Assembly: GCA_014803525.1 (NCBI GenBank)
Contig: JAAVBP010000006.1
Coordinates: 5,430-69,429, forward strand
Reading direction: 5' to 3'
DNA from: a bacterium
Lineage (GTDB): Bacteria > Pseudomonadota > Alphaproteobacteria > Rs-D84
DNA length: 64,000 nucleotides
Below the pieces are notes generated by a model. The model worked only from the letters and a program-made list of their open reading frames with translations, was not told where the DNA came from and made no database searches. Positions 7,215 through 58,221 of this stretch are shown one piece after another (position 1 is the first letter of the stretch; every line of letters begins with the position of its first letter). The position numbers and the translations under genes are program-made.

Positions 7215-7814
7215 ATGAAAAAGACCGTTATATTTTGTACAGGACTGTCCGGCAGTGGAAAATCTTATTTTATACAAAATATGTTACCCACAGGACATTT
7301 TCATAAATTAATATCTGCGACAACACGGCCAATGCGCCCTGGCGAGGTTGATGGACGCGAATATTACTTTCGTGACGAAACATATTTTGACACCGAACCG
7401 TTGGCAACACGATTGTGGGTAAATCAGGCGCAATGGACCCCAGGCAAACCAAAATGGTTGTATGGTGTACCGGAATTTGAAATTCGCAATCATATGGACA
7501 CAAATATAGTATATGACGTGATTCAGCCAAAATATGCAGCCCAAATGCGTAACTGGTTTATAAACATGGGACTGGGGGATGAATATTTGTTTAAAGTTTT
7601 ATATTTTATTGCCCCAGAAAATAATTTTGATATTGCACAAAACCGTGCCAATATGCCAGACGATACAACAGTCCGCAAGGCAAATACATGTACGCCACTG
7701 GACTTTTTGCGTGCTGGGCTGGACATAGACTTTCTGGTTAAATGCAGCGCCGATGAGACAATAATCTCACCCAGGCTGCAAGCATTTTTGACCAAGATAG
7801 GTCGTAGACGTTAA
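7215..7814 (+). CDS. Divergent guanylate kinase-like P-loop protein
   Basis: GLSGSGKS P-loop and SATTRPMRPGEVDGREYYF Gmk signature. C-half is atypical. Ends GRRR. Confidence 0.75.
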   Translation: MKKTVIFCTGLSGSGKSYFIQNMLPTGHFHKLISATTRPMRPGEVDGREYYFRDETYFDTEPLATRLWVNQAQWTPGKPKWLYGVPEFEIRNHMDTNIVYDVIQPKYAAQMRNWFINMGLGDEYLFKVLYFIAPENNFDIAQNRANMPDDTTVRKANTCTPLDFLRAGLDIDFLVKCSADETIISPRLQAFLTKIGRRR

Positions 7815-7885
7815 TATTTTTTCTTTAAGATTTTTTTCTTATATGATAGGCTATGTACACTCACACAGGAGATGAGGAGTACGCA

Positions 7886-9460
7886 TTGAAATTCTATAAT
7901 TTCACATGGTCTGTCATAATATTTTTTTATCCAGTACCAGTATACGCCCAGTCATTTTATGGTGATACGTTTGGGGATGTTTTACACCTGGTTGAAGATG
8001 TATTTATATCAAAGACCGCAAGCCTATATACAAAACACATATACGCAGATACATCATTACAAATATACAACAATGGCAGTATCTATGGAGATTTGTTTAC
8101 ATGTAATGGGTGCGACATGCGTATACATTCCAACGGAGAAATTATCGGTCGCATACACGTGGCCCAGGACGCGACGCTGACACAAATAATAGAAACACCG
8201 GCCCAATTACGACAGTTGAATGTTGTGGGCAATTACTCTGTATTAATAAATAAAACATCTAATATCGCATGGCGCGACATCCAATATATTGCAAAATCAG
8301 CAGATAAAATAATCTTACATAATGCCGTTATAGATTTTTCCATATCTGACCTGCAAACTACTGCGCATAACAGCCCACAAATTGAACTGGTTGGCGAAAA
8401 TGAAATACATTTACATGATCTGGATGAATTCAATGACGTGACGATAATGAATAACATCACCGGCGATGGCACAATCAGATTAAATACAAATGTCCCCAAT
8501 AAGCTTTATGCCGCCTCAGCCACAATTGATAATGACACCTTGCATATTCACAAGATTCGCGAAACAGATTATTATAAAATACTTGGGACTGATATTGGGC
8601 AATATTTAAATTCACTGCGTCTATCAAATTCATCCGACAAATTAATCGCCAGACTGGATGCTGCACACACCATGGATGAGTTGCATCACATAATACATAA
8701 ATCTGTACGATTAAATCCGCGCCAATTAATTCAACCACTGGCGACCATTGCACAACATCGACGCGCCGCCGCAACAACTGATTATTATTCCAATGGATTG
8801 AATATTGCCACATCGCACATTGAACCATTTTATTTATCTGGTGACAATATATCAGCATATGGCGCAAACATAGATGTTGTGACGCCAATATCAAAATACG
8901 TACTGGGTGGAATAAACACTTTTATTGGCCAAGTAAATTTTAACGACCGCACCGATACAATAAATGGCACAGTATATGGAATAGGTGCATTTGCCCAATA
9001 CACAAACAGCGCATTTTATTCTATGACACAAATAGGCCACATCACAGGAAATTTTATAACGCCGGAAATTTATTATGCCGGCAAAACTTTTTATAATCCA
9101 AATGCAAACATTTCATACACAACCATTGATATCGGCCCGCACATAGTCAACACGTCTAATCTTCTTATCACGGCAACGCTTGGTGGCGAAATGGAATATT
9201 CAAGCATCACAGATCATAACGAATTCAAAAGCGCACTGCGGGGCGGAATTCTATCAAACATGACGCATCATGGCGTCGATCTGGTATACAATTATTTTAC
9301 ACATATGTCTTTGACAACAAACAGCGTGACACAAATCTCAATTGGAGTGTCTATAATGTCCGAACCGGATAATGTTGCAGGAAATATTGCCATATCACAC
9401 GTTAATGAAAACGGCGCGCCATCGTACCATGTGCGCGCCGGATTAAAATTTGGCTTTTAA
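7886..9460 (+). CDS. Secreted or outer-membrane protein, autotransporter-like
   Basis: Probable TTG start at 7886 after GAGGAG. Signal peptide ends VYA-Q. Beta-rich, with an amphipathic C-terminal strand ending in Phe (YHVRAGLKFGF). AT-rich. Confidence 0.6.
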   Translation: MKFYNFTWSVIIFFYPVPVYAQSFYGDTFGDVLHLVEDVFISKTASLYTKHIYADTSLQIYNNGSIYGDLFTCNGCDMRIHSNGEIIGRIHVAQDATLTQIIETPAQLRQLNVVGNYSVLINKTSNIAWRDIQYIAKSADKIILHNAVIDFSISDLQTTAHNSPQIELVGENEIHLHDLDEFNDVTIMNNITGDGTIRLNTNVPNKLYAASATIDNDTLHIHKIRETDYYKILGTDIGQYLNSLRLSNSSDKLIARLDAAHTMDELHHIIHKSVRLNPRQLIQPLATIAQHRRAAATTDYYSNGLNIATSHIEPFYLSGDNISAYGANIDVVTPISKYVLGGINTFIGQVNFNDRTDTINGTVYGIGAFAQYTNSAFYSMTQIGHITGNFITPEIYYAGKTFYNPNANISYTTIDIGPHIVNTSNLLITATLGGEMEYSSITDHNEFKSALRGGILSNMTHHGVDLVYNYFTHMSLTTNSVTQISIGVSIMSEPDNVAGNIAISHVNENGAPSYHVRAGLKFGF

Positions 9461-11415
9461 TTCAAATGTGCCTTTAATGCCGTATACACATGACCCAAAT
9501 CAGTTTTAATCAGTGTAGCTAGCAATTGTTCAGCATTATCCGCCTGGCGGGCACCGGCAATCACCTTATCAAAGCTGCGAACAAACTGCGTTGCCTGGGA
9601 ACGAAATACCGCATCTGATTTCAGCATATCGCGCACACGCTTCTTATCCGCCGCCACCATCATTTTCGCCAACCATTTCGAAAAAATGGTTTTATCCCCC
9701 GCATGATACTTTTTCCACACAACATCCGGAATATCCGCGCCCGTTGCACGCGTCAAATCAATTGCCTGTTCGTGCATTTTATCAAAGGCCTTTTCTGTCT
9801 GTTGCAAAAAATCTTTGCTGCTAATTGCACCAAAGGATTCTGTCGGCGCCGCCTTGATTGCATCCATCGGGGCCGAAGCACGTGCAACCATCATTTGCTT
9901 GTTCAATGTCTGCATGGTATTGACCGCCTTGGCATAATCAGACATTAAATCTATCATTTGCTGACGCGATTGTCCGGCCAGATCTTCCAACTTAATCGAA
10001 GAATCCGCTATTGTATCCATTGATTCCGCAACAGTATTGCGCATCAATGTTATTTTTTCATCCAAACTGGCAACGATTTTTTCCAGATTCGCACTGGTCT
10101 CGGCCGAATCACGCGACAAATCGGGCAGGGCCGCATAATACTTTTCTATCAATTCCGACAGCGGCTGCAACTGGGCCGTTGTTTCTGCAGACATCTTTAT
10201 AAGCCCCGCAGATTGCCCCGACAATTGTGTATGCGCAGTGTTCATTTCAATCAGTGTTTCGCGAACCCCCGTCGCCATTGCCCGCACCGATTCCGAGAAT
10301 GCACCGGCCGCAGTTTTTGTATTTTCAAGCGTTACATTTGCAACACCCGACACAGCTTTCAATTCTGATACGACACCTGTCGCAAACTCTTTTATTTCAC
10401 CATTAAACCGATTGGTTAGTGTGGCCAGTTCTGTCGATATGCCTTGGACTGAATTTTCCGTTACCGTCGCCGATGACATTAATGCCTCAACCGCATCGGT
10501 CAATTTGCGCAACTGTTTGTCAATCGATGCCTCGGCCAGACGCACCTGGCCCCCAACAACGTTTGCGGTATTGGTCAGAGTATTCATTTGTGCGGTCAAT
10601 TGTTTTTTCGACTGCTTGCCAAACGTATCCATCTTGGATAAATGCTCGCCAATTAGCGCATTGTTATTGGACATGGTGGATTCATACTCTGCCGCGGCGG
10701 ACTTTACAGCCGAAAAACCATCCGCCACAGATTGATTTAATTCTGTCAAAGCATTACGTATCTCCACCGACTTGTCAGATATATTTTGCATCTGGTTGGC
10801 ATTCTTATCAAATTCCGCCGACAAGTGTTCCGACAATTCGCGTCCCGACTCAACCCATCCATCGATCTGGGATTGAATATTCGAAACACGCTCAATAGTC
10901 GTTGCCGTCGTTTCATCTATACGTCCCAACATTTCGCCAACCACACCCGTAAACTGTGATGCGGCCTTATCAACCCCGGCCCATGATTCCGACTCCACAA
11001 TTTGCTTTAAGCCACCAACTGTGTTATCCAGTCGTTGTGACATTTGGGCGATCTTTTTTGTAGCATCGTCCGCCAGGGTCACCAATTGCTCGTTTTTTAA
11101 CTCTAGTTCTTCGCGTAATTTATTGGCGGCCGCAATTTGCCCATTCATGGTATCCGCCATTGTTTTAAAAGATCCCTCTATCTTGGATATTTCATCCGCC
11201 AGCATCACCTGTAAAACACGGGCGGCATCATGAACCTTGGCACGTTCCGGCCGCGTCATTAACTGCAGCAAAGACTGCATAACCTGTTGAGAACGTCGCG
11301 ACACAAAAAACAATCCACCCAACGCCAAAACCAACAATACACCCAATCCACACCCGGTAATCGCCAAAATCTGTATAAGTTTATTGGCAATCAATATGCT
11401 GTGATCCATTTCCAT
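9457..11415 (-). CDS. Membrane-anchored coiled-coil protein, TipN/GPR-like polar scaffold
   Basis: N-terminal TM helix, about 500 aa of apolipoprotein-like helical repeats, C-terminal VWKKYHAGDKTIFSKWL...FRSQATQFVRSFD...TDLGHVYTAL domain. Confidence 0.6.
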   Translation of the reverse strand: MEMDHSILIANKLIQILAITGCGLGVLLVLALGGLFFVSRRSQQVMQSLLQLMTRPERAKVHDAARVLQVMLADEISKIEGSFKTMADTMNGQIAAANKLREELELKNEQLVTLADDATKKIAQMSQRLDNTVGGLKQIVESESWAGVDKAASQFTGVVGEMLGRIDETTATTIERVSNIQSQIDGWVESGRELSEHLSAEFDKNANQMQNISDKSVEIRNALTELNQSVADGFSAVKSAAAEYESTMSNNNALIGEHLSKMDTFGKQSKKQLTAQMNTLTNTANVVGGQVRLAEASIDKQLRKLTDAVEALMSSATVTENSVQGISTELATLTNRFNGEIKEFATGVVSELKAVSGVANVTLENTKTAAGAFSESVRAMATGVRETLIEMNTAHTQLSGQSAGLIKMSAETTAQLQPLSELIEKYYAALPDLSRDSAETSANLEKIVASLDEKITLMRNTVAESMDTIADSSIKLEDLAGQSRQQMIDLMSDYAKAVNTMQTLNKQMMVARASAPMDAIKAAPTESFGAISSKDFLQQTEKAFDKMHEQAIDLTRATGADIPDVVWKKYHAGDKTIFSKWLAKMMVAADKKRVRDMLKSDAVFRSQATQFVRSFDKVIAGARQADNAEQLLATLIKTDLGHVYTALKAHLN

Positions 11416-11499
11416 CCCTGTACTCTCCACTATGCCTATATCGTTGTTGAAGTTATATGAAATATATACTAGAATATAAAACGTAAAGCAAGGGTATAA

Positions 11500-17464: not shown

Positions 17465-17467
17465 AAT

Positions 17468-20585: not shown

Positions 20586-21512
20586 ATGTTACATAAACAA
20601 CAAAACGTCTTATACAATATTCAGCATAGCAATAATCCGCATCAAGCAGAAAATAATGTCGTAGAATGCGACATCCTTGCAACACTGTTCAAAGATGTGC
20701 AGTTTTCTGAATGTTGCGCACTGGCCGGCGGCAGCACATTGACAATGTCGTATAATATACTGCAACGCAGCAATAATGATATAGATTTAGCCATAACTAA
20801 CTTTAGAACCATAGACAGCTTTACCGGTCGGTTTGAAAAACAGGTGAACAAATTTAGATCTGCCTTTCGCAAGTATTTATTCGGCCCGATATACGAACAG
20901 GTAACAGATATATTATCAGGATATGGTGACATAACCGTCCTGACCGACCCGAAATATATCCAAAACAAACAAACGCCCCAGGCCGCATTGCACATACTTT
21001 ACCCATCTATGATTAGCAGCACCTCGGGACATATATGTTTGGAATTCTCGCCACGCAAGTATTCCCCGGATACAATAGTCCAACAGCCCATCGTCGTGCC
21101 ATATACAAACACAAAAACAATCCCCATTCCGACAGTTCGGCTGGAACAAACTTTTTGGGACAAAATATACGCACTGCACACATATTCGACCGTCCAAAAT
21201 TTATATATAAGACCAACAATATCACGACACTATTATGACGTGGCGTGTATTGCAAAGCATATAAACCTTCCTGATACAAAACATATGCTGCAAAACACCG
21301 CAGATTATCTGGCCCGACATTCAATGCGCAATATTCTGCGTCCAAACGACCTAAGCGATCTGCAGCTGGTCCCCAGTGGCGATTTATATATTGCAATACA
21401 GCAAGATTACAATACAATTAGCAGCAAAGGCATCTTGCCATGCGGCCAATGGGACCAAATTATGAATACATTAACCGAACTGGAAAATAAATTCCGACAA
21501 ACACAAAGGTAA
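20586..21512 (+). CDS. AbiEii-family nucleotidyltransferase (type IV TA toxin-like)
   Basis: LAGGSTL...QRSNNDIDL, EQTFWDK and SRHYYDV motifs. TTGACA-17-CAAGAT-7-ATG(20586). Ends QTQR. Confidence 0.8.
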   Translation: MLHKQQNVLYNIQHSNNPHQAENNVVECDILATLFKDVQFSECCALAGGSTLTMSYNILQRSNNDIDLAITNFRTIDSFTGRFEKQVNKFRSAFRKYLFGPIYEQVTDILSGYGDITVLTDPKYIQNKQTPQAALHILYPSMISSTSGHICLEFSPRKYSPDTIVQQPIVVPYTNTKTIPIPTVRLEQTFWDKIYALHTYSTVQNLYIRPTISRHYYDVACIAKHINLPDTKHMLQNTADYLARHSMRNILRPNDLSDLQLVPSGDLYIAIQQDYNTISSKGILPCGQWDQIMNTLTELENKFRQTQR

Positions 21513-21516
21513 CAGC

Positions 21517-22032
21517 ATGCCGAAATTTGTATTTTCTGATCCACATTTTTTTTCCGAACGTATAATCATCAACTGTCGTCGGCCGTTTTCGTCGATCTCA
21601 GAAATGAACAAAACAATTATACACAGATATAATGAAGTAATAAGCAAGCATGATCGCTGCTATTGGTTGGGCGACGTTATGTATGGCGCCACAAAAGATA
21701 AAGTGCGCGCAATTTTATCCCAAATGCATGGCAGAAAAGATTTAATCTTGGGCAATCATGATCGCAATCATTCGGCAACATGGTGGCGCGACGCAGGTTT
21801 CGACACGGTCTTTGAACACCCAATATATCTTGCCGAAGAATATATAATGTTGTCACATGAACCGTTATTGGAATTTAGATATACAACCCCAACCGTAAAC
21901 ATCCACGGTCATACGCACAATATTAATTTGCCATACCAAAATTTCATAAATGTATGTGTAGAACAAACAAATTACAGACCAGTCCCGTTATGTAATCCAT
22001 TCTTGATCAAGAAACGTGAATTTGAACGTTAA
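21517..22032 (+). CDS. Calcineurin-like metallophosphoesterase
   Basis: SDPHF, LGDV, GNHD, SHEP, HGHTH and NVCVE motifs. Ends EFER. Confidence 0.9.
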   Translation: MPKFVFSDPHFFSERIIINCRRPFSSISEMNKTIIHRYNEVISKHDRCYWLGDVMYGATKDKVRAILSQMHGRKDLILGNHDRNHSATWWRDAGFDTVFEHPIYLAEEYIMLSHEPLLEFRYTTPTVNIHGHTHNINLPYQNFINVCVEQTNYRPVPLCNPFLIKKREFER

Positions 22033-22472: not shown

Positions 22473-23153
22473 TTACTTTTCCTTTATTAAGTCCGGACGA
22501 CGCTCTTTTGTTATTTCGTCCGATTGTTGTTTCCGCCACCGTTCGATATTGCCGTGGTGACCGGACAGCAGGACTTCTGGGACATTTCGTCCACGCCATA
22601 CTGACGGGCGGGTGTATAACGGCCATTCCAGCCCCCCGATTTCAAAACTCTCAGCAGCGGTTGCCTCTGGTCCGCCACCGACCACATTATCTATCAGTCT
22701 GACCGTGCTGTCAACAAAAACTTGCGCGGCAATTTCACCACCCGACAGGATGTAATCACCAATAGATAATTCCATTATATCATATTCTTCAACGATTCGC
22801 TGATCAATTCCTTCGTACCGACCACAGAGCAGGGTGTACGTCGCGTCTTTATCCGCCGCAAAGCCGCGAACCATGCGCTGTTGCAGCGTGGGGCCGCGCG
22901 GTGAAAAATATATCACTTTACCGCGATTTTTGATAGAATCCAGCGCCGCACCCAAAACATCCGGCCGCATAACCATACCTTTGCCGCCACCGAATTGTTC
23001 GTCATCAACACTGCCATAGCTGTTGATGGCAAAGTCACGAATGTTTATGACGTCATATGTCCAGATGCCCTTATCCAGCGCGCGACCAACAACCCCGGCA
23101 CCAAGCGTCCCTGGAAACATTTCTGGAAAAATTGTCAGGATATTAAAGTGCAT
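22473..23153 (-). CDS. trmD: tRNA (guanine-N1)-methyltransferase
   Basis: VDDEQFGGGKGM, CGRYEGID, SIGDYILSGGE, VPEVLLSGHH. Confidence 0.97.
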   Translation of the reverse strand: MHFNILTIFPEMFPGTLGAGVVGRALDKGIWTYDVINIRDFAINSYGSVDDEQFGGGKGMVMRPDVLGAALDSIKNRGKVIYFSPRGPTLQQRMVRGFAADKDATYTLLCGRYEGIDQRIVEEYDIMELSIGDYILSGGEIAAQVFVDSTVRLIDNVVGGGPEATAAESFEIGGLEWPLYTRPSVWRGRNVPEVLLSGHHGNIERWRKQQSDEITKERRPDLIKEK

Positions 23154-23157
23154 GCAA

Positions 23158-23388
23158 TTATCTCGACTTGTGCTGACATTTATCGCAAATATTTTTAATC
23201 AATTTTTTTGGATTGCAATATAATGATTCCTCAAAGAAGATATGCTTACAATCATCTTGAATCACAACCACATATTTTATATCTAACTCTTTTGCGTATG
23301 TGAACGCTGGACAACGATCACCCGACGGACACTTTACAGACGCGAACGGTTCTGAATCATCAAAATACAGTTTTCTATTTTCCATCAT
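23158..23388 (-). CDS. Cys-rich microprotein (family A), ends HKSR
   Basis: Fills the operon gap with 1-4 nt spacers. C-x5-CP...ICDKC pattern shared with its neighbour. Confidence 0.65.
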   Translation of the reverse strand: MMENRKLYFDDSEPFASVKCPSGDRCPAFTYAKELDIKYVVVIQDDCKHIFFEESLYCNPKKLIKNICDKCQHKSR

Positions 23389-23389
23389 T

Positions 23390-23626
23390 TTATCTTGCCT
23401 TTACGTTACAATTCATACACAGTTCCATTATCTCTGCCTTCAAATGACGTGTCTGACCAATAACAGTCCCGATATTAATACATTGCCCAGCAACCGAAGC
23501 ACACACATACCCGGCACCAGATGAATATCTTTTCTGTTGCAACATGGTATAGACTGGGCAATTCAAAACCGGAATATCGCATTCCACAGTTGCCAAACCA
23601 CGATTATTAACAATAAATTCTTTCAT
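23390..23626 (-). CDS. Cys-rich microprotein (family A), ends VKAR
   Basis: Starts 1 nt after the rimM stop. C-x6-CP...LCMNC pattern. Confidence 0.65.
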   Translation of the reverse strand: MKEFIVNNRGLATVECDIPVLNCPVYTMLQQKRYSSGAGYVCASVAGQCINIGTVIGQTRHLKAEIMELCMNCNVKAR

Positions 23627-23627
23627 T

Positions 23628-24092
23628 TTAACCAACCACTATCTTTTTTGCGTCCATATCAACATCGGCACCAATAAACGACACCATGTCACCATTTTCA
23701 AGTTCGATAATATCACCGGCACCAAAGTTCTGAAAGCACACAACGCGACCAATATTTTCGCCCGCGCGCACAACATCAAAACCAATCAAATCCGCCTGAT
23801 AATATTCGCCGTCACGCACCGCGGGCAGGGCATCGCGCGATATAAAGAGTTCTGTGCCACGCAAAGCCTCCACCGCGGTACGGTCTGCATAACCATTTAT
23901 CCGCGCAATAATCACATCGGACGTTGGATTTAAGCGCCGCACAAACTTAAAGTCGGCGGCCGCAAACTTATCACTTTCCACAGAAAGCACGGCAAAATCC
24001 ATCGGTGATGCAGTGTATGTTTGCACGCGCACTTCGCCCCGGATACCCTGGGGCGCAACAATTTTCCCGATCAAGATTTTTTTATCGTCCAT
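23628..24092 (-). CDS. rimM: Ribosome maturation factor RimM
   Basis: GKIVAPQGIRGEV, EYYQADLIG, NFGAGDIIE. Start MDDKK at 24092. Confidence 0.93.
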   Translation of the reverse strand: MDDKKILIGKIVAPQGIRGEVRVQTYTASPMDFAVLSVESDKFAAADFKFVRRLNPTSDVIIARINGYADRTAVEALRGTELFISRDALPAVRDGEYYQADLIGFDVVRAGENIGRVVCFQNFGAGDIIELENGDMVSFIGADVDMDAKKIVVG

Positions 24093-24094
24093 TT

Positions 24095-24289
24095 TTATCT
24101 CTGTTTTTGCGCAGCCAGACACCGTGGACACAAGTCTTTCTTGCACGGGCACCGGTCCGTCCCAGTTCTGAAAGTTGTAAGTTCACCCGATTCCAGTGCT
24201 AATTTCATCTGGCGATAAAATTCGTCCAGTTCATATTGTAAATCGCATTTGATATTTGCATTATATGAACAAAATGTGCGATTTGCCAT
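24095..24289 (-). CDS. Cys-rich microprotein (family B), ends QKQR
   Basis: CSYNANIKC...CPCKKDLCPRCLAAQKQR. Paralogous to the upstream neighbour. Confidence 0.65.
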   Translation of the reverse strand: MANRTFCSYNANIKCDLQYELDEFYRQMKLALESGELTTFRTGTDRCPCKKDLCPRCLAAQKQR

Positions 24290-24295
24290 AATTAT

Positions 24296-24535
24296 CTACC
24301 TTTGCTTTTGTTGTGCGGCCAGATACCGCGGACAACCATTTGGGTCCAGTATGCATTTCTGCGGCCAATCCGCGTTATGCGGGAACGCCATCCCGGGACG
24401 CCACGCCAGTGCCAAAGCAACAAATATATTTACCATGTCATCATGGGTGCACAGTATGCGATTATCATATTTACAATGACAATCCGCCGAGCGCCCCCAA
24501 TCATACGGAGAATAAATCACTTTTTTAGTATACAT
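24296..24535 (-). CDS. Cys-rich microprotein (family B), ends QKQR
   Basis: CKYDNRILC...CILDPNGCPRYLAAQQKQR. Probable start MYTKK at 24535. Confidence 0.6.
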   Translation of the reverse strand: MYTKKVIYSPYDWGRSADCHCKYDNRILCTHDDMVNIFVALALAWRPGMAFPHNADWPQKCILDPNGCPRYLAAQQKQR

Positions 24536-24561
24536 ACCGACACACCATATGCCATTAAACA

Positions 24562-24586
24562 ATTGCCCGGGATGGGCCCGGGCAAT
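24562..24586 (-). terminator. Strong hairpin immediately after rpsP (attenuator or processing site)
   Basis: attgcccggg-atggg-cccgggcaat, a perfect 10-bp stem with a weak U-tract. Confidence 0.55.
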
Positions 24587-24593
24587 CATTATA

Positions 24594-24992
24594 TTATTCC
24601 GCAGATTCTGCCGGGGCCTCGGCTGCCGCTTTGGCGGCTTCTGCTGCCTTGGCCTGTTTTTCTGCCTTGTCCTTAATCTTCATCTGGGTCTTTTCAGACT
24701 GCAGGTGTTTTTTTGTCTGAACCGGAACGGCTTTCTTTGCAACCAAGCCCGCGTTCGCCAAGAATTTGTAAACGCGATCTGACGGTTTTGCACCCTTGGC
24801 CATCCAAGCCTTAACTTCTTCGACCTTCAGAACAACGCGCTTGTCGCTGTCTTTGGCCTGCATCGGGTCGTATTTACCAACAACCTCTAAAACGTTACCG
24901 GAATTACGCGCATTGCGGGAATCCGTCACAACGATGTGATAATACGGACGTTTTTTTGCACCATAGCGCGCCAAACGAATAACTGTTGCCAT
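24594..24992 (-). CDS. rpsP: 30S ribosomal protein S16
   Basis: IRLARYGAKKRPYYHIVVTDSR, GAKPSDRV. Confidence 0.97.
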   Translation of the reverse strand: MATVIRLARYGAKKRPYYHIVVTDSRNARNSGNVLEVVGKYDPMQAKDSDKRVVLKVEEVKAWMAKGAKPSDRVYKFLANAGLVAKKAVPVQTKKHLQSEKTQMKIKDKAEKQAKAAEAAKAAAEAPAESAE

Positions 24993-34332: not shown

Positions 34333-34782
34333 ATGGATTTCATGAAACAAACTTTAATTTTAGCGCGTCGTGCCGCCGAACATGGTGACGTACCAATCGG
34401 CGCCGTAATTGTTCGTAATGGCAAAATTATTGCACGTGGCGAAAATAGGGTGCAATTAAAACGAAATCCAACACTGCATGCAGAAATTGTTGCTATAAAT
34501 CGCGCCTGCAAAAAACTGGGGCAAAAATTCTTGGACGACTGCGATATTTATGTATCACTGGAACCATGCGCCATGTGTGCAACTGCAATATCATTTGCAC
34601 GCATTCGGCATATTTATTTTGCGGCCACCGACCAAAAGGGCGGCGGCATCACCGCAAACGCACGCGTGTTTGATACCGACCGACACCTGTGGCACCCGGA
34701 AATTACACAAGTCCCAGAATACGCGGATGCATCGGCCGAAATGCTGCGCGATTTTTTCCGTGCACGTCGCAAGAAAAACTAA
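34333..34782 (+). CDS. tadA: tRNA adenosine deaminase
   Basis: VPIGAV, HAE, LEPCAMC. Confidence 0.88.
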   Translation: MDFMKQTLILARRAAEHGDVPIGAVIVRNGKIIARGENRVQLKRNPTLHAEIVAINRACKKLGQKFLDDCDIYVSLEPCAMCATAISFARIRHIYFAATDQKGGGITANARVFDTDRHLWHPEITQVPEYADASAEMLRDFFRARRKKN

Positions 34783-35903
34783 ATATCCACATCCATATTG
34801 CATATAGACAGAACCTGGCCCTGATATTTGACGCGCAGATGACCACATTGTTGTTCGGTACTGTCACCATAAAATATATTCCCACCGAACCGCATCTTTA
34901 AACTGTGCGGGGTTCGCGGCACCGTGCGCAGATATAAATTATAATTATCCGAAAAACGCAGCACACGCCCGCAATCCAGCACATCATCAGATCCAGCCGG
35001 CGAATAGGGTGCAAATCCATCGGTTGCCACCGCACAGACCGCCGCGCCATTTGCCCCGACATAATCATCCATATCCATCATCGGCCCGCATTCAAATTTA
35101 CCAGTCCCAATGTTTGTTAAAAATTTACCAGTCACCAAATCCAGCATTCCGCATTCATCCCGCACAGAATCATATACCGGGATCAATTCCAGCACTTTGT
35201 CATCATTGCGCCATTGTGTAAACGAAAAGATCTTTAATGCGTCATGTGGCCATTTGACACTGCCGTCATAACGCAACTCTGCGAACAAATATCCGGGCAG
35301 TCCAACATTAAATTCCCCGGGATTTGAATATATTGTTTCCCCATCCAAAATCCAGTCACCATGCCGAACTTCCACAATATGCTTAACATTTATACTCCAC
35401 TCCCCCTTGTGTTCAGTCATCGGATGATAATCATTATATCTGATATAGGCAAAATTTGTATAACCATTCAACCAGTAGTGCCTATCACTACTATTGGCCC
35501 CGAACAACACATTATCACCCTTGATGGAGTCTGTTTCAAAAATCAGTTCCGTATCAATATCAGAACCTAAAATAATCCCGGTGTCTATATACTGGGTGCC
35601 TGTGCTTTTTAAATATTCTATGCGATGAAATCGATCCTGCATATCATAAAACACCGGTATCACACCCGGACAATAAGAATTTTCAGGACACGTCGCCATG
35701 GCCACACCCGCCACAGGAACATATTTTCCAACATCCGTTATTAAATAGCAATCGTTTATGCTGCTGGCATTCGGCAAACTGAATGGATACGCGGCCGGAC
35801 ATGATGCGCATATATCCCCAATAACATATTCACCAATATCACAATCTGCGGCCTGGGCAGATACACAAAACAATATTGATAAAGAAAACACCAATCGCTT
35901 CAT
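34779..35903 (-). CDS. Secreted Cys-rich surface protein with phage-tail-like lectin-type domain
   Basis: Signal peptide MKRLV...AQA. CPxxY/CPENSYCPG motifs. EYLKSTGTQYIDTG...LIPV...DLVTGKF..N.GTG.F domain. Confidence 0.65.
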   Translation of the reverse strand: MKRLVFSLSILFCVSAQAADCDIGEYVIGDICASCPAAYPFSLPNASSINDCYLITDVGKYVPVAGVAMATCPENSYCPGVIPVFYDMQDRFHRIEYLKSTGTQYIDTGIILGSDIDTELIFETDSIKGDNVLFGANSSDRHYWLNGYTNFAYIRYNDYHPMTEHKGEWSINVKHIVEVRHGDWILDGETIYSNPGEFNVGLPGYLFAELRYDGSVKWPHDALKIFSFTQWRNDDKVLELIPVYDSVRDECGMLDLVTGKFLTNIGTGKFECGPMMDMDDYVGANGAAVCAVATDGFAPYSPAGSDDVLDCGRVLRFSDNYNLYLRTVPRTPHSLKMRFGGNIFYGDSTEQQCGHLRVKYQGQVLSICNMDVDI

Positions 35904-35955
35904 TTTTACACCCAGGCCGCCAGCCCAACCAATAAATCTATATTTTCTAGATTTT

Positions 35956-38187
<2,232 letters not shown>

Positions 38188-51199: not shown

Positions 51200-51550
51200 A
51201 TGGAACGCCTAATCGTTAAAGAATTAAAAGAACTGATAAACAGATCCATTGTATCGGTTACTGAAATAGGTAAAGACAGTTCACAAATAACGATACAAAC
51301 GCCGCTTGTATCTTTTAGCATAACAAATCAATATAATCGCTATTACACATTGAAATATTATACATTTGAAATGTGGGGCAACAAGAGAATTAGAAAGGAA
51401 GATGTTCGCTTTCCAAAGCTGTCAAATGATGCTACACACGAACTGACGGATTTGGCGATGGCGCGTTACCAAGAATATTTTCAAAACAGCCAGCCTGGTC
51501 AGGTGGCACTGTACGACGCACTGTTGAAAATTAATCAACGCACCAGATAA
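51200..51550 (+). CDS. Hypothetical protein, ends QRTR
   Basis: AAAGGA SD, TTGACC-16-TATCAT promoter, own terminator at 51580-51603. Confidence 0.7.
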   Translation: MERLIVKELKELINRSIVSVTEIGKDSSQITIQTPLVSFSITNQYNRYYTLKYYTFEMWGNKRIRKEDVRFPKLSNDATHELTDLAMARYQEYFQNSQPGQVALYDALLKINQRTR

Positions 51551-51757: not shown

Positions 51758-51761
51758 ACAA

Positions 51762-52148
51762 TTAACGACCACTTGCGTGTCGCGTCATTTCATGCCATTC
51801 TTCAATTTGTTTGGCACTTTTACCATTTATCTTTTTTATCTCATTATAAAACATGCCAACACCTTTCAGTTTATTTTGCCGATATGTGTTGGCATAAGTT
51901 ATTTTATCACCGGGCTGAGCGTAATTATAATAACCAACCGTTTCTTCTTTCCAGTCATAAAACTGTATAACACGGTCGGCAATTTTATCCCCGTTCAAAT
52001 CAACAAAAATCTCATAATTTGACTTGTACAGAACAGTACCGGTTTCATCATCTTTATGGTCTATCACATAGTAAGCACCAAACGTCGCAGCACATGCAGC
52101 AGCAAGCGACGACCACAATACAAACTCAATTCCAATTTTATTTGCCAT
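51762..52148 (-). CDS. Hypothetical protein with N-terminal hydrophobic helix, ends ASGR
   Basis: AAAGGA SD before ATG 52148. DLNGDKIAD EF-hand-like loop. Confidence 0.7.
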   Translation of the reverse strand: MANKIGIEFVLWSSLAAACAATFGAYYVIDHKDDETGTVLYKSNYEIFVDLNGDKIADRVIQFYDWKEETVGYYNYAQPGDKITYANTYRQNKLKGVGMFYNEIKKINGKSAKQIEEWHEMTRHASGR

Positions 52149-52211
52149 TACTGATTCCTTTACCAGCAACAAATACTAATCCTAAAAACAATTGTTGTCA
52201 ACAATGATGAC

Positions 52212-52243
52212 AAAAAAAATCGCCCCAATCGGGGCAATTTTTT
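52212..52243 (-). terminator. Terminator after secA
   Basis: A8-tcgcccc-aatc-ggggcaa-T-tract. Confidence 0.65.
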
Positions 52244-54858: not shown

Positions 54859-54996
54859 TTCCTTTTTCCTTATTATTTCCCCCGGACGATAGCAATTTTG
54901 TGCCTTGCGGTCAAGGTACTTTATGATATAATGCAACTGCACGGACATACAAGTCCCCGGTCACAAGAAAGTTTTCATAAAATGGAGAGATGCATA

Positions 54997-55209
54997 ATGA
55001 AAGAACACGCGCAAGCTTTAAACCCGTCCGACATAACCAGCGAAGTCTTCATTATTGCCCCGACACAAATTGAATATATTTCCCGCCTGTTCGCAGACAG
55101 TGTTGCCGACACTATGAACATGCGGACATTTGCCCCGAAAATCCGCCAAATTGCAACAGAATCATTACGTCGCGCATTAACATCCGCACGTCATATGGGC
55201 GAAAAATAA
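54997..55209 (+). CDS. Small hypothetical protein
   Basis: GGAG SD before ATG 54997. Occupies the gap between secA and rnpB. Confidence 0.45.
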   Translation: MKEHAQALNPSDITSEVFIIAPTQIEYISRLFADSVADTMNMRTFAPKIRQIATESLRRALTSARHMGEK

Positions 55210-55253
55210 TTTCGTTTGAATTTTCATAAAATACTGATAGAATACCACGCGTA

Positions 55254-55569
55254 AGATGCGCAGGACATAGCTGGCTCGCAAGAGCTGGAGGAAAGTCCGG
55301 ACTGCACGGGACAGCATACCGGTTAACGGCCGGGCGGGGTGACCCGACGATCAGAGGAACAGTGACGAATCGATTAAGTTCGAGTGAAACGGCCAATCTC
55401 TATGTGCAGCAACTTCAAATAGGCCCCCAATGACAGTCCCAGGAGGGGGCGGGTAGAAGGCTTGACGGCCATGGGAACATGGTTCGCAGACTAATTATGT
55501 CCACTACCCGGGCGTGGTTGTGAAAAGACTGGGCCCGTGGCAGGACAGAATCCGGCTTATCGTGCATCT
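55254..55569 (+). ncRNA. rnpB: RNase P RNA
   Basis: GAGGAAAGTCCGG and ACAGAATCCGGCTTA conserved regions, P1 agatgcgc/gtgcatct, P6 gggac/gtccc. Promoter upstream and terminator at 55574-55602. Confidence 0.95.
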
Positions 55570-55686
55570 GCACGCCGCCCCCGCGGGGGCGGTTGTTTTT
55601 TTGATCCCCCTCCCACGATGGCAAAATCTAGACCGAGCTCAGCACAGCTAACTTTTTCACTAAAAATCCCGCCATCCGGCGGGATT

Positions 55687-56442
55687 TTACATAACCTTAC
55701 CCTGGGTCGGATAAAAGGTCAGCTGTATCTTTTCCCACTTGGCAAATTCGTTCACCGGCAGCATGCTAAAAGGCTGACACACGTCAATTGCCGTGCGGAT
55801 TGTATCCAAGACATAGGCCAGCGTCGGATCTGTTTCCGCGGCGGCCGCCCCTTCGAACCAAACATCACGCACCGTGCCATTCTGGCGCATAGTTAAATGT
55901 GCAACCGCACGTATATTTTCCAATCCCGGCCGCGTTGTATCAATGGCCCAGCAACGTGTCATCGCAACGCGCAACGCATCAACCACCGATATAGTCAGCG
56001 TCCGATCCAGCGACACTGTTTCACGATTCACGCGCACAACCGTCTTTTTACGCGGCGCAGGTATGTCATCTGGTTTAGCATCCGCTTTGGGCGTTGGCTT
56101 TTCCACCTCTGTCGCCGGATTATCATTTGCAATCGGATCCACCATACTGGGTGTGTCCATTGGCACGGGCGCTGGTGCGGGTGGCACTTCCTCCACTTTC
56201 TGTGGCGGTTCTTCCTGCTGTTCCGGCTCTGACGGTGCAGATGTGTTATACAGACGCGTTTCATCAACCGACACCTTTACCGCATTTAAATCTATTTCCA
56301 TAATTTCAACACGGTCCGGCGCGACCAATTGGGCACGGTCAATCACCAGCGCGAACGACGTCAGCAATATCGCCACCAATGCCAAATGCCCACCAACCGA
56401 CATCAACATGTTTTCTGATGAAAATTGATTAAACCTAGCCAT
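55687..56442 (-). CDS. tolA: TolA/TonB-like energy transducer
   Basis: N-terminal TM with SxxxH, Pro/Glu-rich linker, C-terminal RCW...AIDVCQPF...WEKIQLTFYP domain, operon position. Confidence 0.75.
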   Translation of the reverse strand: MARFNQFSSENMLMSVGGHLALVAILLTSFALVIDRAQLVAPDRVEIMEIDLNAVKVSVDETRLYNTSAPSEPEQQEEPPQKVEEVPPAPAPVPMDTPSMVDPIANDNPATEVEKPTPKADAKPDDIPAPRKKTVVRVNRETVSLDRTLTISVVDALRVAMTRCWAIDTTRPGLENIRAVAHLTMRQNGTVRDVWFEGAAAAETDPTLAYVLDTIRTAIDVCQPFSMLPVNEFAKWEKIQLTFYPTQGKVM

Positions 56443-56448
56443 AGTGTT

Positions 56449-56853
56449 TTATTTCTTGCCCATCTGTGTACGCAGGCCAACACGCTGGAATCCCGCGTCT
56501 TTTAAACTGCCCATAACGGACATTACCGCACCATAGTCGGCATGTTGATCACCGTTTATCATAATGGTCAATTGCGGATTTTCCCCGCGCATGGCAATCG
56601 CACGTTTTACAACATTGTCGCGCGACATCTGCTCTTTACCAATATAGTAACGCCCGGCCGCGTCAACACTGATTTGTATTGCATGGTCATTGCCCGTCAG
56701 TGATGAATTACCGGCATGTGGCAAGTCCAAGTCAATACCCGCCGTCATCATGGGTGTGGTTACCATAAACACCGCCAGCAACACCGTCATGATATCAATC
56801 ATGGGCGTCAGCGATATTACGGCATCTGAATTTCTGCGTCTGGATCTAGACAT
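56449..56853 (-). CDS. tolR: TolR/ExbD
   Basis: LTPMIDIMTVLLAVFMVTTP, GDQHADYG, AGFQRVGL. Confidence 0.85.
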   Translation of the reverse strand: MSRSRRRNSDAVISLTPMIDIMTVLLAVFMVTTPMMTAGIDLDLPHAGNSSLTGNDHAIQISVDAAGRYYIGKEQMSRDNVVKRAIAMRGENPQLTIMINGDQHADYGAVMSVMGSLKDAGFQRVGLRTQMGKK

Positions 56854-56870
56854 CTTGGCATGCCCCCGTA

Positions 56871-57365
56871 TTATTTCTTAGACCGTTTTGCATGCGCGGC
56901 ATATTTCAAGGAATCATACAGCGCATCCGCACGCTTGGTAAAATATTGATACGCAATCGCCGCCGGCACCGCCGCAATCAGCCCCAGCGCAGTTGTCCCC
57001 AGCGCAGTTGCCAAACCCGGCGCAATAACGCCGATGGATACAGACTGGTTCACGCCAATCGACGCAAAGGAATCCATAACACCCCAAATTGTACCAAACA
57101 ATCCCACAAACGGCGCAACATATGACACCATGGACAAGAACCACAAATTCTTATCATACGGGCGCAGCACACGATCCAGTTCAACATCAATATCGATGTT
57201 TTCATCAATCTTAACCGGTGTATGCGGTTGTGCGCGCCACAGGCGAATTTTCTCTATAATAATCGCCCAGGACATAACACTGCCCGCAATCAGCATCAGC
57301 GATATCGCCAGCGTCATCAAATCCCCGCTGGTAAACAGCGATAATAATGAAAAGTTATTTGTCAT
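56871..57365 (-). CDS. tolQ: TolQ/ExbB proton channel (shortened)
   Basis: APFVGLFGTIWG, IAPGLATAL.TTALGL.AAVPA. Confidence 0.85.
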   Translation of the reverse strand: MTNNFSLLSLFTSGDLMTLAISLMLIAGSVMSWAIIIEKIRLWRAQPHTPVKIDENIDIDVELDRVLRPYDKNLWFLSMVSYVAPFVGLFGTIWGVMDSFASIGVNQSVSIGVIAPGLATALGTTALGLIAAVPAAIAYQYFTKRADALYDSLKYAAHAKRSKK

Positions 57366-57392
57366 TTTTCCCCTTCCTTTTCTTTCCTTATT

Positions 57393-57773
57393 TTAACTTG
57401 CGAGCGCATCAAGTATCGATTCCGGAATACGTTTCGGCCGCATATTATTCCCCAGATACGCAATCTTGATGTTCATTATAGCACAAACATCATCACCTTT
57501 CACGAACTTTTGTTCAATATCCATCGATGCAGCGCCAATTTCTGTGATAACGCTTTCCACAACGAAATCATCGCCCAAGCGTAATGGCTGCAAATACCGC
57601 ACCGACAATTCCCGCACAACAAAGCCCAAATCGCCATCCGGGAACACCACCCCACGCAGCCAATGCATACGGGCGCGTTCGGCAATTTCTATATATCGGC
57701 CATGATATACAATACCGCCCGCGTCTGTATCGGCATAGGCAATTGAAAATGGAAATTTATGCGTGCGTGACAT
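57393..57773 (-). CDS. ybgC: YbgC-family acyl-CoA thioesterase
   Basis: YADTDAGGIVYHGRY...ERAR. Canonical position before tolQ. Confidence 0.9.
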   Translation of the reverse strand: MSRTHKFPFSIAYADTDAGGIVYHGRYIEIAERARMHWLRGVVFPDGDLGFVVRELSVRYLQPLRLGDDFVVESVITEIGAASMDIEQKFVKGDDVCAIMNIKIAYLGNNMRPKRIPESILDALAS

Positions 57774-57774
57774 T

Positions 57775-58221
57775 TTATCTAACCTTTTGCATAAAGCGCG
57801 GCGGTATCTTTGACGGCTGGAACTGAAACAATCCTATATCACGCCGCAATATATTCAGATACAACTCTTCCACATACTCGCGTTCATCTTCATCTGTTAT
57901 AATCAGAGTATTACAATCCTTCTTTAACTGCTTAATCGCATCAGAATCCGTCGCAGCAATTCCGCCCCGACTGCGCATAAAATCTACATATTTCACAAAC
58001 GGTACAACCTGGGGCATTTGTGACAAGTCCATATCATAATGCACAGATATGAAATCATAAAAATCTTTCATATCTGCAACATCATCCCTATTACCCAATT
58101 CACGCTGAAATCCATAACGAAATTTGTTATAGCCCAGCGCCTTTATACCAAAAGTGCGACACTTGCGCGTCCACCCCGTTGGATACGGTATAAACACCCG
58201 TGATGTATGTATATTTATCAT
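57775..58221 (-). CDS. Hypothetical protein inserted between ruvB and ybgC, ends QKVR
   Basis: AAGGGGG SD, fills the operon gap. Confidence 0.7.
   Translation of the reverse strand: MINIHTSRVFIPYPTGWTRKCRTFGIKALGYNKFRYGFQRELGNRDDVADMKDFYDFISVHYDMDLSQMPQVVPFVKYVDFMRSRGGIAATDSDAIKQLKKDCNTLIITDEDEREYVEELYLNILRRDIGLFQFQPSKIPPRFMQKVR

Follow-up and report, generated by a model that had tools for sequence, protein, structure and literature searches.

The window, which denotes the whole stretch of 64,000 nucleotides analysed, contains twelve open reading frames (ORFs) whose products terminate in Arg (Table 1). Using gene calls from a home-made dicodon caller, which are distinct from a standard annotation, together with direct translation, the twelve C-termini flagged in a preliminary description of this DNA were all reproduced, with a terminal Arg in 12/12 ORFs and in 0/47 of the other called genes. 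The codon usage reported for the last residue (four CGT, six AGA and two AGG) and the presence of Gln at position -4 in seven of the twelve ORFs were likewise recovered. Fifty-eight genes were retained by the caller, of which eleven are Arg-ending and 47 are not; the twelfth Arg-ending ORF (24296-24589) has a coding score below the caller threshold, and an uncalled ORF (34779-36119) ends in Ile. For the classification of genes, those common to another family of the order were considered core, with the remainder divided into genus-level genes and orphans.

Table 1. Arg-ending ORFs of the window (G003 and G022 are genomes of the same and of another family of the order, respectively)
Feature	Position	Strand	Last six residues	Longer end	Last codon and stop	Remarks
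Guanylate-kinase-like P-loop protein, 199 aa	7215..7814	+	KIGRRR		CGT TAA	genus-level gene
AbiEii-family nucleotidyltransferase, 308 aa	20586..21512	+	FRQTQR		AGG TAA	orphan vs G003 and G022
Possible metallophosphoesterase, 171 aa	21517..22032	+	KREFER		CGT TAA	orphan; terminator-like hairpin 3'
76-aa protein, 6 Cys, between rimM and trmD	23158..23388	-	CQHKSR	CDKCQHKSR	AGA TAA	no Pfam family
81-aa protein, 6 Cys, between rimM and trmD	23390..23635	-	CNVKAR	CMNCNVKAR	AGA TAA	no Pfam family
64-aa Cys-rich protein between rpsP and rimM	24095..24289	-	AAQKQR	CPRCLAAQKQR	AGA TAA	no Pfam family
97-aa Cys-rich ORF between rpsP and rimM	24296..24589	-	AQQKQR	CPRYLAAQQKQR	AGG TAG	no Pfam family
DUF3419-like class I methyltransferase-fold protein, 274 aa	32074..32898	+	IIQKTR	PIIIQKTR	AGA TAG	
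Paralog of 32074, 288 aa	32904..33770	+	LIQKTR	PILIQKTR	CGT TAG	convergent gene downstream
116-aa protein, no known family	51200..51550	+	INQRTR		AGA TAA	orphan; terminator-like hairpin 3'
136-aa protein, N-terminal hydrophobic segment	51762..52172	-	RHASGR		CGT TAA	terminator-like hairpin 3'
148-aa protein, no known family	57775..58221	-	FMQKVR		AGA TAA	

The product of ORF 7215 matches the Pfam Guanylate_kin family (E=1.4e-7), and its tail is not conserved, with the 73%-identical G003 ortholog ending in ..KLQH. ORF 20586 belongs to the AbiEii family (PF08843, E=8e-19, 69 bits against a curated cut-off of 22.5); the same FRQTQR end is found in its closest homolog (46% identity), while six homologs sharing 33-36% identity end in KINSL, KLKTL, KLKTI or ..TVHNC, with Leu or Ile as the last residue in five of the six. 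ORF 21517 shows a weak match to Metallophos_2 (E=0.003), under the curated cut-off. Among the three paralog pairs previously proposed, that of ORFs 32074 and 32904 is clear (53% identity, E=2e-103) and that of 24095 and 24296 is supported (34% identity over 62 aa, E=2e-4), while the similarity between 23158 and 23390 is weak (23% identity, E=0.05) and, together with the same Cys spacing, suggests that the latter is likely a distant paralog of the former. ORFs of the 23158 kind occur at the rimM-trmD position in genus g1 only. The Cys-rich ORFs inserted in the rpsP operon resemble members of one or two families that evolve fast and have basic tails. A single protein, 98% identical, was matched by ORF 51200 among 5.8 billion clusters. 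The G003 ortholog of ORF 51762 (30% identity) ends in ..IPYSR and also employs CGT, and that of ORF 57775 (39% identity) ends in ..RLKQR with the codon CGG; the latter ORF has a match at E<=0.001 in only one of 60 other genomes of the family.

Both members of the pair 32074 and 32904 exceed the Pfam cut-off for DUF3419 (PF11899; 30.6 and 31.3 bits, respectively, against 28.2). In the AF2 model of the former (pLDDT 95.3) the last strand comprises residues 266-272 (TPIIIQK), and the top Foldseek matches are SAM methyltransferases (probability 1.00). According to this model, the final beta-strand of the methyltransferase fold includes the Gln and Lys of the tail. The best structural matches of the pair among the class I SAM methyltransferases are MnmM, rRNA methylases and NNMT, while the pair itself forms a separate subfamily, represented solely by proteins from metagenomes, in which a conserved P-I-I-I-Q-K-T-R end has its Q-K within the last strand. 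The database homologs of ORF 32074 end in Q-K-x-R in 39/50 cases and in Arg in 44/50. The tail of the AbiEii protein is thus lineage-specific, in line with the earlier proposal, which is weakened by the DUF3419-like pair, where the ending is shared by most homologs, and by ORF 7215, where it is not retained in the G003 ortholog.

The frequency of Arg ends in the window (11/58) differs from that in the genome as a whole (115/1105) with p=0.035 only. The eleven called Arg-enders all fall among the 18 non-core genes of the window, as compared to 15.2% of the non-core genes elsewhere (p=1e-5), and when the three paralog pairs are collapsed Arg ends are present in 8/15 non-core genes (p=6.5e-4). 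Genome-wide, terminal Arg occurs in 19/526 core genes (3.6%), 41/295 genus-level genes (13.9%) and 55/284 orphans (19.4%; p=2.6e-13), so that the difference between accessory and core genes on which the preliminary description had made its case depend is borne out. This split stands when only genes of at least 100 aa and with a score of at least 40 are considered (17/477 core, 29/213 genus-level and 28/143 orphans). Terminal Arg is depleted (0.6x) in conserved genes and enriched approximately 3-4x in lineage-specific ones. Spurious ORFs cannot yield this pattern, since the ORFs rejected by the caller (n=3907, at least 60 aa) end in Arg in 9.8% and in Lys in 4.3% of cases. Furthermore, Arg-enders tend to be neighbours: 22 Arg-Arg pairs are adjacent, where 12.3 would be expected (p=0.0015).

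Equivalent splits are observed in three further genomes of the same family: G003 (22/522 core versus 39/283 genus-level and 26/136 orphans; p=3e-9), G060 (400 kb; 7/249 core versus 17/160 non-core, p=0.002) and G046 (400 kb; 9/234 versus 20/145, p=6e-4). No Arg-end excess was found in the whole genome of G022 (14/527 core and 12/444 non-core, 2.7% in both) or in a 120-kb sample of G019 (2/62 core and 3/68 non-core), which belong to two other families. The share of non-core genes ending in Arg climbs with genomic G+C, from 2.7% at 30% G+C to 10.6% at 36% and 14-17% at 46-50%. The family harbouring the trait consists of small-genome gut Alphaproteobacteria of the order Rs-D84, with Candidatus Enterousia as the nearest named relative.

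Across all 1105 genes, both Lys (284 genes, 4.4-4.5x the protein body) and Arg (115 genes, 1.9x) are over-represented as the last residue. The Arg codons AGA and CGA, which account for 6.8% and 7.0% of Arg codons overall, make up 36.5% and 25.2% at the last position (10.3x and 6.9x enrichment, respectively), with AGG enriched only about 1.3x and CGT and CGC depleted. An A occupies the third position of the last codon in 55% of genes, as compared to 25% of codons in gene bodies, and an A-rich island surrounds the stops (-3 to +7). The Arg-end signal is thus in part the known bacterial last-codon bias towards AAA, AGA, CGA and NNA codons. However, CGT and CGC together rise from 0.16x at the ends of core genes to 1.07-1.55x in non-core genes, and AGA and CGA from 4.3x to 9-10.7x; as both groups are higher in non-core ends, an amino-acid effect lies atop the NNA effect. 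The effect is independent of any ribosome-binding site downstream, with Arg ends in 30/209 non-core genes preceding a convergent gene, 23/116 with a same-strand start within 15 nt and 42/242 otherwise.

Conservation of the last residue was assessed in non-core ortholog pairs between the genome under study (G000) and G003. The orthologs of 37 Arg-enders end in Arg in 25 cases (68%) and in Lys in six, while Lys-enders have switched to Arg in 3/62 pairs. Identity in the Arg-ender pairs is 68% at -1 against 19-38% at positions -2 to -12; in 146 pairs ending in neither Arg nor Lys it is 56% at -1 and 42-56% at the neighbouring positions. The codon differs in 17/25 Arg-Arg pairs, with the eight identical cases comparing to approximately six expected by chance. 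Arg-enders make up 20/44 of the pairs with an identity under 50%, 11/89 of those at 50-70% and 6/112 of the most similar ones (70% or more), and are thus most frequent among the fastest-evolving pairs; in this class Arg ends outnumber Lys ends (20 versus 9). Terminal Arg is thus selected at the protein level, and represents neither a DNA motif nor one shared homologous tail; the ortholog, codon and gene-context counts agree in this with the earlier view that selection acts on the protein rather than on a DNA site or a downstream Shine-Dalgarno sequence.

In the tails of Arg-enders, position -3 is commonly basic and positions -2 and -4 are commonly occupied by Gln, Asn, Ser or Thr; the alternation of basic residues begins with -1 and -3 and extends in part to -5 and -7. 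The enrichment of Gln at -4 noted in the window extends genome-wide (20/115 Arg-enders in 19 BLAST families, where internal Arg contexts predict 3.7; p=1e-9), as does that of Lys at -3 (27/115 in 24 BLAST families, against 5.8 expected; p=2e-11). The mean net charge of non-core Arg-enders is +0.40 over positions -5 to -2, +0.42 over -10 to -6 and -0.01 over -20 to -11. As described for the window, most carriers lack an N-terminal hydrophobic segment: Arg ends occur in 68/312 soluble-like non-core proteins (21.8%) and 20/187 membrane- or signal-like ones (10.7%; p=0.0015), with similar values in G003 (47/211 and 17/161), and this difference is seen for Arg only, being absent for Lys. A Pfam match above the curated cut-off is lacking for 16 of 20 Arg-enders tested. 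The Arg-enders are thus mostly soluble, fast-evolving proteins without Pfam families.

The best reading of these data, favoured tentatively and with slightly less than even confidence, is that terminal Arg acts as a selected C-terminal cap. Two layers are superimposed: the bias of the last codon towards AAA, AGA, CGA and other NNA codons that is known for bacteria generally, and, in this family, the carriage and retention of terminal Arg by fast-evolving, lineage-specific and mostly soluble proteins. The last residue and free carboxyl end would set the cytoplasmic fate of young, weakly constrained proteins, with the steady-state level of Arg-enders governed by C-terminus-dependent proteolysis, ribosome release or both, and terminal Arg may represent a lineage-amplified form of the universal basic-end preference, serving as a protective cap with a putative reader. 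That conservation is so sharply confined to the final residue is consistent with recognition of the C-terminus by such a reader. A plain cap satisfied by any basic residue is insufficient, given the excess of Arg over Lys in the fastest-evolving class, the few switches between the two residues and the situation in M. pneumoniae, where the last residue alters protein level and degradation and Lys gives the highest expression (Weber et al. 2020, Mol Syst Biol, PMC7246954). Counting against the cap is the absence of the trait from G022 and from the 120 kb of G019, genomes which should share the housekeeping proteases and release factors. The same applies to the solubility of the carriers: across the last ten positions the general basic bias is stronger in membrane proteins, with a similar pattern at -1 (PMC7246954), yet here soluble-like non-core proteins end in Arg twice as often as membrane- or signal-like ones. 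In an origin at the level of translation, termination would be delayed by a rare Arg codon (AGA or CGA) directly ahead of the stop, which would tune or couple translation or else trigger tmRNA tagging that keeps foreign or young products low; this would agree with the over-use of these two codons at the last position and with the A-rich island around the stops. Rare Arg codons before stops were reportedly described as determinants of SsrA tagging in E. coli by Hayes, Bose and Sauer in 2002. The translational origin is nonetheless highly improbable, as Arg is kept between orthologs although any of its six codons may be used, with the common CGT and CGC among them; ends in these two rise 7-10 fold from core to non-core genes, and a termination effect should not depend on protein solubility; furthermore, no tmRNA was detected by ARAGORN in the 27 contigs of the incomplete assembly.

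The main rival to the cap is an export tag, as the preliminary description had proposed, in which [KR]-x-R-COOH in a polar setting of Gln, Asn, Ser or Thr would be a family-specific signal read by VirD4 or another adaptor, so that in each genome approximately 70-100 soluble, fast-evolving proteins, or about one fifth of the soluble lineage-specific ones, would be delivered into a partner cell via VirB/VirD4. The search for a secretion system suggested at the time did uncover, outside the window, genes for a VirB/VirD4 type IV system, with VirB4, VirD4, a VirB11-like ATPase, VirB8, VirB9 and VirB10 above the Pfam cut-offs, and the presence of such genes in a genome of roughly 1 Mb speaks for export. 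So do the effector-like nature of the carriers (lineage-specific, fast-evolving, soluble, without N-terminal hydrophobic segment and mostly without Pfam match), their clustering, the retention of Arg itself rather than Lys between orthologs, the lineage-specific AbiEii tail and the proposal that Rs-D84 bacteria depend on partner cells (PMC12306168). However, the expected co-occurrence breaks down, as VirB4 and VirD4 are present in 5/5 genomes searched, including G022, the sole whole outgroup genome, which has no Arg-end excess. Conservation is limited to the last residue, with the net charge raised only over the last ten or so, the Gln and Lys in the tail of the methyltransferase pair belong to its fold, clear effector-type domains of the ankyrin or Sel1 kind were not detected and TrbL/VirB6 was not found by Pfam search of the genome. 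Export is considered rather doubtful. That Arg ends are a by-product without dedicated function, arising from the universal end bias, tandem paralogs, structural C-terminal strands and a rise in G+C by which fast-evolving genes settle on Arg while conserved genes keep ancestral Lys, is also judged unlikely. The ratio Arg/(Arg+Lys) of non-core genes is close at the terminus and in the body in most genomes (0.42/0.45 in G000, 0.44/0.46 in G003, 0.25/0.26 in G060 and 0.38/0.51 in G046), with 0.08-0.13 at the termini of core genes in every genome, and the climb with G+C, the three paralog pairs of the window, the structural, family-wide DUF3419-like tail and the few families behind the Cys-rich ORFs of the rpsP operon all point the same way. 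Set against this, Arg codons are near-random between orthologs, yet Arg has changed to Lys in only 6/37 pairs and Lys to Arg in 3/62, which indicates that Arg and Lys are not exchanged neutrally. In addition, the terminal Arg is retained 2-3x better than its neighbours, Gln(-4) and Lys(-3) recur in many separate BLAST families and the soluble bias is specific to Arg.

The preference for a basic last residue, known across bacteria, has been treated as uniform, weak and related to expression. In the present case the proteome is sharply divided by it. Terminal Arg is avoided by conserved genes but present in as many as 45% of the lineage-specific proteins that evolve fastest, where selection holds it as the rest of the tail changes; the setting is a single family of an uncultured lineage for which a life at the expense of partner cells has been proposed. 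As a stability cap, it would illustrate how the cell comes to tolerate young proteins; as an export tag, it would make an effector repertoire legible from the genome sequence of an organism not yet grown. Either way, it provides a simple, testable marker for a protein class otherwise without annotation.

C-terminal degrons and anti-degrons, such as the ClpX C-motifs, are recognised by cytoplasmic proteases through the last few residues and the free carboxyl end; recognition of this kind would account for conservation confined to -1, although we know of no bacterial reader specific for terminal Arg. Known VirB/VirD4 signals are spread over some 20-40 residues and, to our knowledge, do not need Arg as the very last residue, and the Agrobacterium signal has an alternating R-x-R consensus, which the alternating basic residues observed here resemble. 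Unlike these signals, only the last residue is strongly conserved here, and the trait does not co-occur with the type IV system across families. The Agrobacterium VirB/VirD4 substrates carry an Arg-rich C-terminal translocation signal (Vergunst et al. 2005, cited in PMC8525350), and the likeness lies in the C-terminal position, the use of Arg over Lys and the presence of a VirB/VirD4-type system. In the survey of 1,582 genomes by Weber et al. (PMC7246954), Lys and Arg are enriched 2.32x and 1.76x at -1, among Arg codons only CGA, AGA and AGG are strongly enriched at the end, NNA codons are favoured, and the bias is given as qualitatively independent of functional category. The present genome resembles this account in its Lys and Arg ends, mainly encoded by CGA and AGA, its NNA codons and the signs of selection specific to -1. 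In contrast to what that survey leads one to expect, the Arg bias differs here between classes of protein and is weaker in membrane- or signal-like ones. Unlike the universal bias as presented in that survey, Arg is depleted in conserved ends and enriched in lineage-specific ones, with a peak in the fastest-evolving proteins, and the Arg ends favour soluble proteins and are limited to one family of the order.

The preliminary description of the window had proposed that a terminal Arg, often as Q-x-x-R, marks accessory ORFs as candidate substrates of an export system such as VirB/VirD4. The order Rs-D84, to which the source genome (1.08 Mb in 27 contigs, 46% G+C) probably belongs, comprises gut bacteria with genomes below ~1 Mb and a probable dependence on partner cells, according to a published account (PMC12306168). 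Genes were called with a home-made dicodon-score caller trained on 425 ORFs that were 300 aa or longer, which yielded 1105 genes that together span 88% of the genome; the C-termini are robust because stop positions are independent of start choice. Using tblastn against two whole genomes, G003 (945 kb) from the same genus and G022 (931 kb) from another family of the order (f5), these genes were classified as core (match in G022, n=526, a class resting on this single outgroup genome), genus (match in G003 only, n=295) or orphan (match in neither, n=284). Arg was the last residue of 115/1105 proteins (10.4%), Lys of 284 (25.7%) and Glu of 106. In the comparison that the preliminary description had proposed, the association with accessory genes extends to the genome as a whole, with Arg ends in 19/526 core (3.6%), 41/295 genus (13.9%) and 55/284 orphan genes (19.4%; p=2.6e-13), and it persists when only genes of 100 aa or more that score at least 40 are counted (17/477, 29/213 and 28/143, respectively). 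Q-x-x-R ends occur in one core, ten genus and nine orphan genes. The Arg content of protein bodies is lower in non-core than in core genes. Spurious ORFs were rejected as a source of the effect, as it is kept in the high-confidence subset; ORFs rejected by the caller end in Arg in 9.8% and in Lys in 4.3% of cases.

Within the window, 11/58 called genes end in Arg and 47/58 in another residue, which is only mildly unusual against the genome-wide rate (p=0.035). Among its non-core genes, 11/18 have an Arg end, compared to 15.2% of those in the rest of the genome (p=1e-5), or 8/15 once paralog pairs are collapsed (p=6.5e-4). Our own calls and translation reproduced all twelve tails and terminal codons, with Gln at position -4 (counted back from the last residue, -1) in 7/12; the twelfth ORF, a paralog of ORF 24095, falls under the coding-score threshold. 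Elsewhere in the assembly, contigs C26 and C27 contain only non-core genes, are phage-like in appearance and have duplicated genes in common, while contigs C12 and C14 have a G+C content of 37-39% against 46% for the genome; all four may be mobile or mis-binned. The gene ends of C26 (6 Lys and 6 Arg among 43) are unlike those of the rest of the genome and this contig may be foreign, and it was therefore dropped as a test case.

The split recurs in G003 (22/522 core, 39/283 genus-level and 26/136 other genes; p=3e-9) and, between core and non-core genes, in 400-kb samples of G060 (36% G+C; 7/249 vs 17/160) and G046 (9/234 vs 20/145), which represent two further genera within the family, although the relatives compared are not independent of one another. 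No split was found in G022 (30% G+C; 14/527 vs 12/444) or in a 120-kb sample of G019, from family f2 (2/62 vs 3/68), one whole genome and 120 kb being the extent of sequence that defines the family boundary of the trait. In G022, Phe ends are more common in non-core than in core genes (12.4% vs 7.0%), and Arg shows no excess.

Selection on the protein, rather than on a DNA site or a downstream Shine-Dalgarno (SD) sequence, had been suggested for these ends, and both codon usage and ortholog comparison uphold this. From core to non-core genes every Arg codon group rises at the last position, CGT+CGC from 0.16x to 1.07-1.55x and AGA+CGA from 4.3x to 9-10.7x. The set of 747 reciprocal best hits between the source genome and G003 includes 37 non-core proteins ending in Arg, whose orthologs end in Arg in 25, Lys in six and another residue in six cases. 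Identity in these pairs is 68% at -1 and 19-38% at -2 to -12, while in 146 proteins ending in neither Arg nor Lys the last position (56%) is similar to its neighbours (42-56%). The Arg codon differs in 17/25 Arg-Arg pairs; thus synonymous sites are nearly randomised while the residue is retained. Exchange with Lys is rare in both directions, with a change from Lys to Arg in 3/62 pairs. Overlap with a downstream SD was rejected as the cause, given that Arg ends make up 14.4% of non-core genes preceding convergent genes, 19.8% of those tightly coupled to the next gene and 17.4% of the remainder. Gene-end DNA motifs or repeats were likewise discarded, the downstream sequences being unlike and the codons varying among paralogs and orthologs. 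Origin of a Q-K-x-R tail by stop loss, with TAA changed to CAA ahead of A-rich 3' sequence, fails to explain conservation of the last Arg. Codons for Gln at -4 (CAA 13, CAG 7) lie slightly above the roughly even CAA:CAG usage of gene bodies.

The Arg ends are embedded in a recognisable tail. Relative to expectation from internal Arg residues, there is an excess of Gln at -4 (20 vs 3.7; 19 BLAST families), Lys at -3 (27 vs 5.8; 24 BLAST families) and Ser, Thr or Gln at -2 (42 vs 16), and proteins ending in Lys lack a comparable Gln enrichment (15 vs 9.4). At -2, 32% of the tails have Ser/Thr and 18% Gln/Asn; Lys/Arg fills position -3 in 39% and Gln/Asn position -4 in 28%, and further in, at -8 to -10, hydrophobic residues make up 41-48%. 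An N-terminal motif search yielded three weak positions and nothing more. Proteins with Arg ends are concentrated among the fastest-evolving ones, accounting for 20/44, 11/89 and 6/112 non-core ortholog pairs with <50%, 50-70% and >=70% identity, respectively (core pairs: 0/10, 2/58 and 14/434). Under a crude hydrophobicity classification, they are more frequent among soluble-like proteins than among proteins bearing a hydrophobic N-terminal segment or a membrane span, both in the source genome (non-core, >=60 aa; 68/312 vs 20/187, p=0.0015) and in G003 (47/211 vs 17/161); Lys ends in non-core proteins of >=60 aa show no such difference. Pfam searches with 20 of the 46 listed non-core proteins with Arg ends (110-420 aa, outside the window) gave nothing above the curated cut-off, or chance-level matches, for 16/20. 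Neighbouring pairs of Arg-ending genes are in excess (22 vs 12.3 ± 3.2 expected), and this clustering probably reflects in part diverged tandem paralogy. Together, these data establish that the terminal position of young soluble proteins is under a lineage-specific, Arg-specific constraint acting at the protein level.

Features of the window and a similar ORF elsewhere in the genome (ORFs with Arg ends are named by their lower coordinate)
Feature	Coordinates	Strand	Pfam result	Remarks
ORF 7215			guanylate-kinase-like P-loop	G003 ortholog without Arg end
ORF 20586			AbiEii	orphan vs G003 and G022
ORF 21517			metallophosphoesterase, sub-threshold match only	orphan vs G003 and G022
ORF 23158			none	Cys-rich
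ORF 23390			none	Cys-rich
ORF 24095			none	Cys-rich
ORF 24296	24296-24589		none	Cys-rich
ORF 32074			DUF3419
ORF 32904			DUF3419
ORF 51200			none	sole database match near-identical
ORF 51762			none	G003 ortholog (30% identity): tail differs, Arg end kept
ORF 57775			none	G003 ortholog (39% identity): tail differs, Arg end kept
AbiEii-family gene and possible metallophosphoesterase	20586-22032			second gene follows after 4 nt
rpsP-rimM-trmD operon	22473-24992	-		contains the four Cys-rich ORFs
446-aa ORF	34779-36119	-	none	dropped by caller; overlaps 5' end of the 743-aa gene by ~160 nt
743-aa gene	35956-38187
59-aa orphan ORF	G000:C2:48415-48594 (source genome, contig C2)			ends ..AQKKR; inside a gene run conserved with G022; resembles the rpsP-operon insertions

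Of the protein families suggested for the twelve ORFs, Pfam supports the AbiEii, P-loop and DUF3419 assignments and gives a sub-threshold match for the phosphoesterase. For the DUF3419-like pair, 44 of 50 database homologs end in Arg and 39 share the Q-K-x-R end, and in the confidently predicted structure (pLDDT 95.3) the segment T-P-I-I-I-Q-K forms the last strand of the methyltransferase fold, followed by T-R alone; in this pair, the Q-K of the tail is structural and inherited. For AbiEii, the closest homolog has the same FRQTQR end and six homologs with 33-36% identity have other tails, 5/6 ending in Leu or Ile; its polar Arg end is therefore lineage-specific. A scan of thirty operon loci showed that, in members of the genus, rpsP, rimM and trmD are separated by one to four small ORFs, most of them Cys-rich, which differ in number and sequence among species. 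Across the nineteen genus loci, seventeen of which yielded ORFs, Arg is the last residue of 24 of the 47 gap ORFs and Lys of 13; two entries in this list are likely rimM genes, and a few others are short and of doubtful status. In the other families of the order sampled, 11/11 loci have the three genes directly adjacent, without insertions.

Several explanations for the constraint were weighed. A C-terminus-dependent effect on protein fate, in which a terminal Arg would act as a protective cap, is tentatively ranked first because it extends a measured phenomenon and fits the focus on a single residue; it explains poorly the choice of Arg over Lys and the absence of the trait from two other families. 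An export tag would account for both the class of carriers and the specificity for Arg, and a secretion system is indeed encoded, with VirB4, VirD4, a VirB11-like ATPase, VirB8, VirB9 and VirB10 on other contigs, so the export reading is not refuted by lack of a compatible apparatus. These genes occupy four or more scattered sites (VirB8/9/10; VirB4; VirD4; VirB11-like) on contigs C1, C2 and C4, with conservation extending to another family of the order. However, VirB4 and VirD4 were found in 5/5 genomes, including the trait-free G022, so that having the system is no predictor of Arg ends; having failed the one co-occurrence test run, the export reading is considered rather unlikely. Profile searches of the source genome found no TrbL/VirB6 match, domain searches found two sub-threshold ankyrin matches and no Sel1, and a family-specific acidic C-terminal tail on VirD4 was dismissed after comparison of four proteins revealed no pattern.

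A by-product of composition and paralogy, with which the similarity of Arg/Lys ratios at the ends and in the bodies of proteins agrees, is slightly less probable still and is at odds with the ortholog comparison. A pure translation effect is improbable, being contradicted by the codon turnover and the dependence on solubility. No sign of an altered genetic code or a missing tRNA was found: the Arg tRNAs form a normal set (ACG x2, CCG, CCT, TCT), and TrmD matches were free of internal stops in 29/30 genomes. ARAGORN detected 47 tRNAs and no tmRNA in the 27 contigs; the tmRNA gene may be unassembled, or an overlooked two-piece form.

The amino-acid effect is superimposed on a codon bias. AGA and CGA make up 36.5% and 25.2% of terminal Arg codons (6.8% and 7.0% genome-wide), while the share of CGT+CGC falls from 73% of Arg codons genome-wide to 23% at the last position. 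A is the third base of the last codon in 55% of genes, compared to 25% of codons in gene bodies; TAA accounts for 75% of stops (829/1105), and an A-rich island spans -3 to +7 around the stops of the whole genome. In a study of 1,582 bacterial genomes, Lys and Arg are enriched 2.32x and 1.76x at the last position, only CGA, AGA and AGG are strongly enriched among terminal Arg codons and NNA codons are favoured (PMC7246954). The last-codon bias of the source genome agrees with this published general bias, and part of the Arg-end signal noted in the window is therefore ordinary.
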